From Dictyostelium discoideum (lineage: Eukaryota), in the NCBI GenBank assembly GCA_000004695.1, contig CM000151.3, forward strand, positions 5,728,001 through 5,792,000: 64,000 nucleotides of DNA, in the 5' to 3' direction. The position numbers and the translations under genes were made by a program. Each line of letters starts with the position of its first letter. Within the stretch, counting starts at the first letter, position 1. Positions 11,374 through 52,326 of the stretch are shown piece after piece. The notes beneath the pieces are model-generated. The model worked only from the letters and a program-made list of their open reading frames with translations. It was not told where the DNA came from and searched no databases.

Positions 11374-16830
<5,457 letters not shown>

Positions 16831-16913: not shown

Positions 16914-16948
<35 letters not shown>

Positions 16949-16985
16949 TATGGTTATTTATTTATTTATTTATTTATTTATTCTA
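16903..16985. repeat. (ATTT)n / (TTTA)n microsatellite in the convergent 3' intergenic region.
   Basis: Reads tttatttatttatttatttatttatttatttatatggttatttatttatttatttatttattt. Confidence 0.8.
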
Positions 16986-17036
16986 CAATGGATACATTTT
17001 AATTATTTTTTTTTATTTTATCAAACATATATTTTT

Positions 17037-17295
17037 TTATTTTAAATAACTAGCCATTTCTGTATAAACTTTAAATTTTACATCTTCCTTACTTTTTTTT
17101 AATTCATCTCTGCCAATATTATTTTCAAAATTATTGAATATGATATCATCTTTATCGCTTGTACTAACCAAAGTATATCTAGTCTTTTTTTTTTTAAAAA
17201 AAAAAAAAAAATCTTAGTATATCATAAAAAAAAAAAAATTTTAATATCATAAAATTATTACTTACTATTTCTTTAGTTCTATACAATGAATTCAT
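17037..17295 (-). CDS. Candidate small two-exon gene encoding a 58-aa protein (MNSLYRTKEITRYTLVSTSDKDDIIFNNFENNIGRDELKKSKEDVKFKVYTEMASYLK). Exons are 17266..17295 and 17037..17183.
   Basis: A minus-strand ATG at 17295 is followed by 10 codons and then a perfect GTAAGT donor (17265-17260). The intron is A/T-rich and ends ...AAAAAAG (acceptor 17185/17184). Exon 2 reads in phase 0 for 48 codons to a TAA at 17037-17039. Both exons are under 60 aa, so the ORF track does not show it. No homolog was recognised. Confidence 0.35.
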
Positions 17296-17742
17296 ATTTA
17301 CCAAAATACAATCAAAATTAAATATATATGAAAAAAATAAAAAATAAAAAAATAAAAAATATATTAAATAAAAAAAGAAAATTAAAATATTTTCTTTTTT
17401 TATTTATTTTTTAATTTTAATTGTTCATTCAAATAATTAAAAATTTTTTTTCACATATTATTAAAAAAAAAAAAAAAAAAAAAACAATAATAATAATTTT
17501 TCCATGTTTACCATACATATTTGTGTTCTACAGATCGGCGTATAAGAAAATAAAAAAAAAATAAAAAAAAAAAAATTAATTTTTTTTTTTCTTTTTTTCT
17601 TTGTGTTAAATCATCCATATTATTTATTCCTTATAATTCACTAGGAACAACCACTTGAAAAATCAAATATTAAACTAAAAAATTAAAAATTAATTAATTA
17701 TTAATTATTATTTCAATTTTTTTTTTTTTTTTTTCCCAAAAA

Positions 17743-26201
<8,459 letters not shown>

Positions 26202-26545: not shown

Positions 26546-26873
26546 CAAAAACAAATCTTTACCACAATCTACACTTTTTTTTTTTTTTTTTAAACACCTT
26601 GATATTAATTATTTTACTTACCATTTTTTTTTTTTTTTTTTTTTAAAATAATTGTAGTGGTAGAAACTTAGAACAGGACTCAAAGTAAAATCGATTTAAT
26701 AATAAAATAAAAAATTATTAAAAAAAAAATAAAGAAGTTTAGATTTTTAAATTCAAATAATTATTTTATTCAATGATATTTTTATTATTATTATTATTTA
26801 AATATTATTATTATTTAAATATTATTATTATTTTTTTAAATAATTATTTATTTATTTATTTAAATTTAATTAC

Positions 26874-35500: not shown

Positions 35501-35944
35501 CAAAATGTTAAATCTGGTTGAGTGTTATCTAAATCATTTACAATACTTTGGAACATTGCGCTATTCTTGTATGCATTTGCAAATTCTTCGGCACCTCTAA
35601 GTGGTGGTTCACCTTCACCTTCAAAATATAATTCTGGTTCATCAACAATCTCTTGGAAAAATTCTGCTGGATTATGATGTTTTGGTAATTTAAATCCTAA
35701 TCCTTCAAAATATGAAATTGCATCTGACATTGGTCCAAAATAAACCATATGACCAGCATTCATAATCATTAAGAAATCAAATAATTTTGTAACTTCAACA
35801 CCTGGTTGTAATAATGCTACCAAACTTGAAACTTGATTTACATTTGATAATTCTCTAAAATGTTTCATTAACTTTTTTTTTAATAAAAAAAAAAAAATAA
35901 AAATAAAATAAAAAAATATTAATACTAAATTTTAAAAACTATTA

Positions 35945-40613: not shown

Positions 40614-40916
40614 ATGGCTGATGATAAAAAGAAACAATTAGAAGAATCAAAAAGATTAGTAGAATTATTTAAAGCAAGTTCATTAGCATCAAAAAAACCA
40701 AAGGGACATGAATTTTGGGATACTCAACCAGTTCCAAAGATTGACGATAAAATTATTGAATCTGGTCCAATTGAAAATAAAACTTTAGATGATGTTAGAA
40801 AAGATCCATTAACTTTACCACCAGCTTTTGAATGGATTGAATTAGATTGTAATAAACCAGAAGAAGTAAGTTTTTTTTTAATTTTAATTTTATTTTTTAT
40901 ATAAACATATTTTAAT

Positions 40917-40975
<59 letters not shown>

Positions 40976-41966
40976 GTTAAAAGAAATTTATACATTACTT
41001 TATGAAAATTATGTTGAAGATGATGATAATATGTTTAGATTTGATTATTCACCAGAGTTTTTAAAGTGGGCATTACAACCACCAGGATTTTTAAAGGAAT
41101 GGCATATTGGTGTTAGAGTTGTTGAATCAAAGAAATTGGTAGGATTTATTTCAGGTATTCCAGCAACTATTAGGGTAGAGGGTAAACCAATTACAATGGT
41201 AGAGATCAACTTTTTATGTGTTCACAAAAAGTTAAGAGAGAAACGTTTAGCACCAGTACTTATCAAAGAGGTGACAAGAAGAGTTAATCTTAGAAACATT
41301 TGGCAAGCCGCCTATACAGCTGGTGTAGTGTTACCAAAACCAGTTGCAATTTGTAAATATTGGCATAGATCAATTAAGCAACAGAAACTCGTTGAGGTTG
41401 GGTTCAGTGCGATACCACCAAAGATGACTATGGCATCCATGGTGAAATTGTATCGTATCAATGATGAAATGAAACATCCATTACGTCCATTGACCAAAGA
41501 GGACGTACCATCATTCAAGGTGTTATTGGACGACTACTTGTCGAAATATAAAATCGCACCAGAGTTCACCACTGATGAAGACGTTTGGCATTGGTTTGAG
41601 ACTAGAAAGGACGTTATCACTTGCTATGTAAAGGTTGACGAGTCCACTAAAAAAGTCACTGATGCTTTCTCATTCTACAATTTACCATCAACCATCATTG
41701 GTAATGCAAAACATAATACCCTCAAAGCAGCATTCTCCTTCTATAATGTAGCCACAACTATGTCAATCACTGATTTGGTTGGTGACGCACTTGTCACTGC
41801 AAAGAAAATGGATTATGATGTCTTCAATTGTTTAGATGTTTTCGAAAATTCAACTTTCTTTAAAGATTTGAAATTTGCGGTTGGTGATGGTGATCTTCAA
41901 TATTATTTATACAATTATTCAACTCCAACTAAAAAATCATCTGAAATTGGTTTAGTTTTGTTATAA
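40614..41966 (+). CDS. nmt: Glycylpeptide N-tetradecanoyltransferase (N-myristoyltransferase) of about 414 aa. Exons are 40614..40865 and 40977..41966.
   Basis: Exon 1 is MADDKKKQLEE...GHEFWDTQPVPK...LPPAFEWIELDCNKPEE, with a GTAAGT donor (40866). The intron is a poly-T of about 110 nt ending AAAATAG. Exon 2 is LKEIYTLLYENYVEDDDNMFRFDYSPEFLKWALQPPGF...EINFLCVHKKLREKRLAPVLIKEVTRRVN...LQYYLYNYSTP...GLVLL. This is near-collinear with the metazoan and fungal NMT core. Confidence 0.9.
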
Positions 41967-50625: not shown

Positions 50626-51105
50626 CAAAATAATAATCAAAATAATAGTAATAATAACAATAATAATAACAATCATAATAATAGTAATAATAATAATAAT
50701 AATAACAATCATAATAATAGTAATAATAATAATAATAATAATCAAAATAATAATCAAAATAATAATCAAAATATTAATAATCAAAATAATAATCAAAATA
50801 ATAATCAAAATAATCAAAACAATAATAATAATATTGAAAAAGAGATGGAAATTGAAAATTCACAACCTGTACAATCTCAAATTACAATCTCCAAAAATAT
50901 AAACGAGGAAGCCCCTTTAAAAAGAGGTCCTGGTAGACCAAGAAAATCAAAGTTATCATCTGCATTGGTTGAAAAAACAGCCAATATAAACTCAAATAAC
51001 ATCGTCACAAACGATAACGAATTGAACAATGTCGATAAAAATTCATCAACGAATCCAGTTGAAGATGGCCCAAAGGAAAAACCAGTCGAGCAAATAACAA
51101 CTTAA
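48448..51105 (+). CDS. AT-hook DNA-binding protein (885 aa) with three GRP-core AT-hooks, a poly-Gln block, acidic Ser/Glu stretches and long Asn-rich tracts.
   Basis: The AT-hooks are KRKPGRPKKYRPE, KRGPGRPPKYSKS and KRGPGRPRKSKLS. Other features are (Q)~48, SDSELMSESEESEEVESD and (KEKE)n. Confidence 0.65.
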
Positions 51106-51840: not shown

Positions 51841-52326
51841 ATGGTAAAATCAAGAAAATTAAATAAAAGATTAATGGAGGAGGAAAAATGTAATATAATT
51901 TGTGAAAATACAATTAGAGAAAAGAATGGAACTATCAATTATTTAAAGAAAATGAATCAAAATTAGTATGTAGAGTTTATTGATTACAAAATGAAAATCA
52001 ATATTTGGATAGGATTTCAATAAAACTTTAAATGAAAAAGTAGAAACATTTGAAAAGGAAACAATTAGGATAAAAAATGAATTAGAAATTTATAAATCAG
52101 CATTTGAAAATAGAGAATTTGAAAATATAAATAAAAATAATATTAAATGGAGAGAAGAAGCGTTTTATCATATTTCAAATTTAAATGAATCTGGAATAAA
52201 ATTACTTTCCCAAAAAGATTAGCTTATTAATGAATTAAAATCTAAAATAAATATTATAACTTTAACTCATTGTATCGATTGTAATCCACCTGATCAAATT
52301 ATTGACAGTTTTAATTCCAAATTTTA
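51841..52326 (+). pseudogene. Decayed coding remnant: coiled-coil-like ORF fragments in two frames with a 1-nt frame offset and internal TAG stops.
   Basis: One frame reads MVKSRKLNKRLMEEEKCNIICENTIREKNGTINYLKKMNQN*. Shifted by +1, the next segment reads DFNKTLNEKVETFEKETIRIKNELEIYKSAFENREFENINKNNIKWREEAFYHISNLNESGIKLLSQKD*LINELKSKINIITLTHCIDCNPPDQIIDSFNSKF*. Its composition is coding-like, unlike the surrounding A/T desert. No intron combination that I tried restores a frame. Confidence 0.35.

Follow-up and report, generated by a model that had tools for sequence, protein, structure and literature searches.

The window analysed here is a 64,000-nt stretch of chromosome 2 of Dictyostelium discoideum AX4 (contig CM000151.3, positions 5,728,001 to 5,792,000 of the forward strand). 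Its plus-strand open reading frame (ORF) 16366-16830 is identical to the last exon of AX4 RasGEF N (gefN, XP_643499.1), and its minus-strand ORF 17743-24816, of 2357 codons, codes for a KATNIP/KIAA0556-family protein with DUF4457 (PF14652) domains. The spacer between the gefN stop (plus strand, 16830) and the stop of the KATNIP-like gene (minus strand, 17743) is 912 nt long, with a guanine-plus-cytosine (GC) content of 12.4%. It contains on the minus strand, between 17295 and 17037, a candidate two-exon frame of 58 codons that is convergent with gefN and lies in tandem downstream of the KATNIP-like gene, with about 450 nt separating it from the KATNIP stop and 206 nt from that of gefN. Its sequence features are those of a plausible, though unproven, small orphan gene.

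The candidate begins with an ATG at 17295, which together with nine further codons forms the proposed coding part of exon 1 (17266-17295, minus strand, 20% GC), encoding MNSLYRTKEI. A GTAAGT donor follows directly at 17265-17260, in the extended form GTAAGTAA at 17265-17258. The proposed intron (17184-17265, minus strand) is 82 nt long, A/T-rich (8.5% GC) and ends with AAG at 17184; a branch-like TACTAAG is found at 17219-17213, its A 30 nt from the 3' end, and the 3' end itself is built of a run of 16 T (17211-17196) followed by 11 A and the final G (17195-17184). The proposed coding part of exon 2 (17040-17183, minus strand, 22.4% GC) has 48 codons, TRYTLVSTSDKDDIIFNNFENNIGRDELKKSKEDVKFKVYTEMASYLK, whose peptide runs from TRYTLV to MASYLK, and is closed by a TAA stop codon at 17037-17039. 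Both junctions (17266 and 17183) are in phase 0. Start, donor, intron, acceptor and stop are all where the original prediction had placed them, and the spliced product is the 58-residue peptide that it quoted. The exon-2 frame has no ATG until the last seven codons before the stop, so it would be usable only through splicing.

Upstream of the ATG, a putative 5' untranslated region (UTR) and start context (17296-17330, minus strand) has a raised GC content after a T-rich stretch of 0-3% GC; it includes a TATATAT at 17328-17322, and position -3 relative to the ATG is occupied by A (GGTAAATATGAAT). The first AATAAA after the stop is at 17012-17017 on the minus strand, 20 nt downstream of the TAA. 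More copies are present in a (TAAA)n run at 16982-16961, and the hexamer is trivially common in the local DNA. A (TAAA)n microsatellite, (TTTA)n on the plus strand, occupies 16915-16985 between the gefN stop and the candidate stop; it is broken once by CCATA and is the source of many of these AATAAA hexamers. The predicted product has 58 residues, a mass of 6.9 kDa and an isoelectric point of 7.9. It is hydrophilic, rich in K, D, E and N, devoid of Cys, Pro, His, Gln and Trp, and has no signal peptide or membrane segment. Segments of it read YTLVSTSDK, DDIIFNNFENNIGR and VYTEMASYLK.

The splice signals were compared with introns of the window, reconstructed by joining adjacent coding frames, the evident low-GC ones being taken as genuine. 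The latter are 91-176 nt long with 3-12% GC. Local donors are GTAAGT in 5 of 11 cases, two of them exactly GTAAGTAA, the others being GTAAAT, GTATGT, GTAATG and GTAGGT. Acceptors of genuine introns are TAG or AAG, and the succession of T-run, A-run and G seen in the candidate is found in two of these introns, at 35872 and 59795. Branch-like motifs have the form CTAA[CT] or TTAA[CT], 21-54 nt from the 3' end; the ACTAAG of the candidate, at 30 nt, has the right core and distance and an atypical last base. In donor, short length, GC content, branch-motif position and acceptor the proposed intron matches the genuine local ones. A first exon of as few as 10 codons followed by a short AT-rich GTAAGT...AG intron is in keeping with typical D. 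discoideum gene architecture, and the GTAAGTAA donor, the 8.5% GC and the acceptor are as in the introns 35977-35872, 36343-36253 and 40866-40976. The differences are that the branch-like motif ends with G rather than C or T and that an 82-nt intron is slightly below the confident local range.

Composition changes along the candidate in register with its proposed parts. GC content measured in 30-nt steps is 0-3% upstream, rises to 17-20% over the putative 5' UTR and exon 1, falls to 7-10% in the intron, reaches 17-30% in exon 2 and drops to 7% past the stop, and the three codon positions rank GC1>GC2>GC3 as in real genes. With coding models trained on the long ORFs of the window against its non-ORF DNA (the approximately 20 kb outside long ORFs), exon 2 scores in frame +16.0 bits by codon log-odds and +17.6 bits by a 3-periodic Markov model; the other five frames across it are all negative, from -21 to -114. 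Exon 2 ranks sixth of 76 among non-coding open frames, and those above it mostly look like real small exons. The score of exon 1, 7.5 bits, is reached by 3.8% of non-coding stop-free 30-mers and corresponds to the 40th percentile of real coding 10-codon windows.

An open frame alone is no more than chance in the local AT-rich DNA: in the non-ORF set, 76 open frames reach 48 codons or more and 36 reach 58 or more. The exon-2 frame specifically is open in only 0.3-0.4% of simulations that use the composition of the patch. We also scanned for the whole construct, defined as an ATG, an open exon 1, GTAAGT, an intron of 60-300 nt and AG, followed in phase by an ORF of 48 codons or longer. The real non-ORF DNA has it once, at the candidate locus. 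Markov nulls of third and fifth order expect 0.03 and 0.09 constructs per window-equivalent, respectively, and none of 200 Markov simulations attains the coding score of the candidate. GTAAGT itself is rare, occurring at 18 sites on both strands of the 64 kb, most of them at the ends of coding frames. The whole in-phase construct is unlikely to be pure chance.

Chance nevertheless supplies the most serious competing explanation, which we regard as possible if rather doubtful. The locus would then be a stop-poor and slightly GC-richer intergenic patch in which an ATG, a GTAAGT and an AG happen to stand in phase, with neither splicing nor translation. Several observations speak for it or weigh against a gene. 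Besides the abundance of open frames of 48 codons or more counted above, four of the six frames stay open over 40 codons or more in the exon-2 patch, and at least one frame out of six is open in 12% of the simulations from the patch's own composition. AT-rich DNA typically encodes K/E/N/D/I-rich peptides. None of the 58 codons starts with C, against 17% in real genes, and the overall C content of the candidate equals the background. The scores of exon 2 are at the bottom of the real-exon range, namely at the 9th (codon) and 4th (Markov) percentile of genuine 48-codon windows. The Markov null understates the heterogeneity of real intergenic DNA, and there is a selection effect, the whole window having been searched for such patterns in making the original prediction. 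A single-sequence AlphaFold model of the peptide is one long low-confidence helix (predicted local distance difference test score, pLDDT, 63) that is uninformative, giving no functional clue. Finally, 20 years of curation have produced no homologue, annotation or transcript model.

Our own searches add to this side. A phmmer search with the 58-residue peptide against 1.84 billion cluster representatives, a set whose scope leaves outside the unannotated dictyostelid genomes, returns no match at E <=0.001. The PDB gives no match to the peptide, and metagenome scans with the peptide and with a 28-nt string of exon 2 are both empty. An exact look-up in a collection of 15 billion proteins that contains the AX4 proteins does not find the peptide. 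The same collection also lacks the peptide of a 44-codon ORF starting with TTG, TTG-extended forms and the products of all other small ORFs of the spacer. Pfam yields one sub-threshold match of 14 bits to Dynein_attach_N, an assignment that we rejected as noise. Matches to the candidate elsewhere in the window, as from a paralogue or copies, are limited to A/T low complexity. Rfam finds between 16500 and 18000 only chance-level matches (E >=2.2, far below gathering scores), none of them overlapping the candidate. A word-index protein search gave no candidates and is accorded zero weight, having returned no Dictyostelium entries and missed even the identical gefN fragment of 154 residues; its KATNIP matches were all of at most 737 residues.

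Published expression catalogues were consulted as well. Transcriptome re-annotation with PASA described 44 novel AX4 genes, all of at least 101 amino acids (PMC5282741), none of which is near gefN. The AX4 catalogue of long non-coding RNAs (lncRNAs) holds 621 intergenic models (Rosengarten et al. 2016, PMC5295588) and has no spliced model on chromosome 2 outside 2.46-2.47 Mb; its few single-exon lncRNAs near the gefN position interpolated from identifiers require an intergenic space of 2.6 kb or more, or are unplaceable without coordinates. These absences, which again tell against a gene, are weak negatives, a transcript of about 0.3 kb being at the edge of such pipelines. Logan contigs that match gefN are of genomic origin and stop within AT-rich sequence some 110 nt beyond the gefN stop, short of the candidate. 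Our literature search found no Dictyostelium ribosome-profiling (Ribo-seq) or small-ORF study.

Against chance stands first the rarity of the construct, of which 0.03-0.09 are expected in a window, or less than about 0.015 with the observed coding score. Exon 1 is likewise coding-like and raised in GC, the branch-like motif and the T-tract are placed exactly as in real introns, and the complex part of the ORF begins exactly at the AG. Of the other non-coding frames that score similarly, most are evidently real exons. On moderate evidence, exon 2 with its acceptor is probably a real exon.

A second assignment of exon 2, overlooked in the original prediction, comes from the 3' end of the KATNIP-like gene, with whose donor exon 2 is in phase. 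The ORF of this gene ends with ...CCG ACA/GTA AGT AAA TAA, so that an exon end in phase 0 follows ...DHPNPT. The GTAAGT (17749-17754, minus strand; extended form GTAAGTAAAT) is a perfect donor located 9 nt before the TAA, and the ORF may therefore read into a real intron. A proximal partner is at hand: an intron at 17675-17754 (minus strand) would have 80 nt, 8.7% GC, TTAAT motifs and a TTTTTTAG acceptor. Its removal would change the carboxyl terminus from ...NPTVSK to ...NPTFNI (FNI and stop at 17674-17663), and past this acceptor are found a stretch of 22.7% GC and an AATAAA at 17628-17623. On these signals the KATNIP-family gene almost certainly has a 3'-terminal intron. Exact look-ups of the protein read from Met 24816 with the VSK, FNI or exon-2 carboxyl terminus find none of the three deposited, which is uninformative; the curated KATNIP model probably has a 5' exon as well.

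The Pfam DUF4457 domain ends 38 residues before the Dictyostelium stop, against 76-84 residues carried past the domain by homologues, and dozens of homologues extend 80-95 residues beyond the end of the BLAST alignment. The KATNIP-like ORF stops about 47 residues short and is without the family tail, composed of an EQDVxxIN hairpin and an RPxT motif in which R479, P480 and T482 each show conservation of at least 90%. All frames over 17760-16700 are without an RPxT; exon 2 has KVYT. Where the family has an invariant RG, the last Dictyostelium DUF4457 copy reads QA (IWNYFKNISQAIKEY). AlphaFold models the tail of the Physarum homologue as a hairpin of low confidence (pLDDT 60-67), after which the RPxT region is disordered; pLDDT is 44-67 for the tail overall. 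Loss of a tail that is only semi-ordered in the Physarum model may be tolerable in Dictyostelium.

Exon 2 could accordingly be the terminal exon of the KATNIP/DUF4457 gene, joined by a 571-nt intron from donor 17754 to acceptor 17184 and adding a carboxyl-terminal tail of 48 residues. Variants are that it is the relic of an ancestral terminal exon or an exon re-used with a new first exon. We consider an origin of this kind unlikely, in spite of a suggestive geometry. The ORF ends 9 nt past a perfect consensus donor, as expected when reading into a real intron; exon 2 is on the same strand, immediately downstream, with donor 17754 and acceptor 17184 both in phase 0; and it would bring the post-domain tail from 38 to 83 residues, within the 76-84 of homologues, no other downstream frame offering a tail candidate. 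There is also a weak collinear similarity. MAFFT sets DKDDIIFNN under the EQDVxxIN hairpin and KVYT under RPxT, and semi-global pairwise scoring with 49 tails of the family yields Z = 3.4-3.5 (p = 0.002 relative to shuffles). Among 170 unrelated peptides of the window none reaches the raw score of exon 2 and 2.4% reach its Z. Weak genuine members, when left out one at a time, have Z as low as 3.4-5.4.

Profile methods give this assignment no support. A tail-only HMMER profile scores exon 2 at -1.7 bits (rank 567); appending exon 2 to the end of the ORF adds +0.2 bits in HMMER, equalled by 26% of shuffles; and HH-suite assigns a probability below 1%, equalled by 14-15% of shuffles. The RPxT that is conserved at 90% or more is not kept. 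Homology of exon 2 to the KATNIP tail is thus not established by these sequence comparisons. The gene structure raises further objections. The natural partner of the 17754 donor is the strong proximal TTTTTTAG acceptor, with its 80-nt intron, UTR-like sequence of 22.7% GC and AATAAA, which the longer intron would have to pass over. At 571 nt that intron would be more than three times as long as the longest confident local one and would enclose islands of 23% and 32% GC. The in-phase ATG-GTAAGTAA located 82 nt upstream of exon 2 would be left as a coincidence of about 0.2-0.5%, a rough estimate based on how densely GTAAGT occurs at sites that are not donors and on how likely an in-frame ATG is to lie upstream. 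The tolerable loss of the semi-ordered tail argues in the same direction, and phmmer finds no deposited protein that contains exon 2. A middle exon that would join KATNIP to exon 2 through the 17265 donor was also tried and rejected, there being no in-frame xAG codon in 17403-17266.

Gene fission is the variant that would explain together why the phase is shared, why the tail length fits exactly, why a weak collinear similarity is seen and how a perfect ATG-GTAAGTAA first exon comes to be there. An ancestral KATNIP terminal exon would have become an independent 58-residue microprotein by acquiring a new 10-codon first exon and a promoter, a course of events that we hold to be very improbable. 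The parent KATNIP gene would in that case end at the proximal 80-nt intron (...NPT-FNI).

The region might lastly be transcribed and the 58-codon frame left untranslated, either in a long 3' UTR made by KATNIP read-through with introns 17754-17675 and 17265-17184 removed, or in an independent spliced lncRNA. Both short introns are individually canonical, and intergenic lncRNAs number in the hundreds in D. discoideum, their GC content being about 17% and about 10% of them carrying ORFs of 150 bp or more (PMC5295588); the polyadenylation signal 17628-17623 between the two introns, the frame-specific coding signal of exon 2, which would go unexplained, and the fact that no lncRNA model is assignable to the locus make this improbable.

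We favour, with a probability of roughly 0.45, a stand-alone minus-strand gene that is small, unannotated and lineage-restricted and encodes the 58-residue product. This value, like the likelihoods worded above, is a judgement and not a computed posterior. The two-exon gene put forward in the original prediction keeps on its side the anatomy, the fit to local introns, the GC profile, the frame-specific coding score and the improbability of the construct; it has lost ground through searches that found no conservation, no deposited protein and no transcript model, through the low coding scores and through the missing C-initial codons. Among the readings that take exon 2 as a real exon, the stand-alone gene leads because it accounts for most features by ordinary mechanisms, namely two short canonical introns, one in each gene, separated by a poly(A) signal. 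Under the KATNIP readings the coincidences of phase and length are explained at the price of an unusual intron or a rare evolutionary event.

We infer transcription, splicing, translation and any function of the candidate from its sequence, along the following lines. The transcription start would lie some tens of bases before the ATG at 17295 and past the polyadenylation signal of the KATNIP-like gene near 17625. The canonical 82-nt intron 17265-17184 would be removed with use of the GTAAGTAA donor, the ACTAAG branch region and the T16/A11-G acceptor. The resulting mRNA of about 0.3 kb would be translated to the 58-residue, 6.9-kDa protein ending at the TAA at 17037, with an AATAAA just downstream. 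The gene, if real, is probably evolutionarily young, since its composition is near the intergenic background and it has no detectable relatives.

Three other observations were made in the window. A GC island of 50 nt (17496-17545, no strand assigned, 32% GC; minus-strand letters CTTATACGCCGATCTGTAGAACACAAATATGTATGGTAAACATGG) sits in spacer DNA of about 6% GC, at about 200-250 nt before the proposed ATG. Rfam offers no match for the island, which could be a cis-regulatory element. On the plus strand, 52013-52222 is a K/E/N-rich open frame of 69 codons (DFNKTLNEKVETFEKETIRIKNELEIYKSAF...) with a positive coding score, within a 1.8-kb spacer between ORFs ending at 51105 (plus strand) and 52897 (minus strand); it may belong as an exon to a neighbouring gene or to one not yet recognised. 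At 26621 on the minus strand, AAAATG is directly followed by the consensus donor GTAAGTAAAA, an arrangement suggestive of a minus-strand gene whose first exon has a single codon.

The candidate, if real, is an ordinary unannotated small-ORF or orphan gene with standard Dictyostelium architecture and not a new system. It resembles such genes in having fewer than 100 codons, below the usual annotation cut-offs, in its canonical start, splice and stop signals without detectable homologues, and in a composition near that of the surrounding non-coding DNA, as in young genes; it differs in that its membership is predicted from sequence alone. With the D. discoideum lncRNAs (PMC5295588) it shares an intergenic position, a short length and a GC content above the intergenic background. 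It is set apart from them by a frame-specific coding signal and by an ATG-to-stop frame across a canonical intron, and it is not identifiable in their catalogue.

Nothing known is overturned by these results. The 3'-terminal intron of the KATNIP-family gene may be more useful in practice than the small gene, for the 3' end affects the gene model and the functional comparison with the ciliopathy protein KATNIP. The Dictyostelium gene lacks the conserved RPxT tail or encodes it elsewhere; dictyostelids are not known to have cilia. The 58-codon frame, if it is a gene, would add one to the small orphan proteins that length cut-offs have kept out of the annotation of a heavily curated model genome. 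As such it would provide a test case for the number of two-exon micro-genes hidden in the AT-rich spacers of Dictyostelium and a possible example of a young gene born from intergenic DNA.

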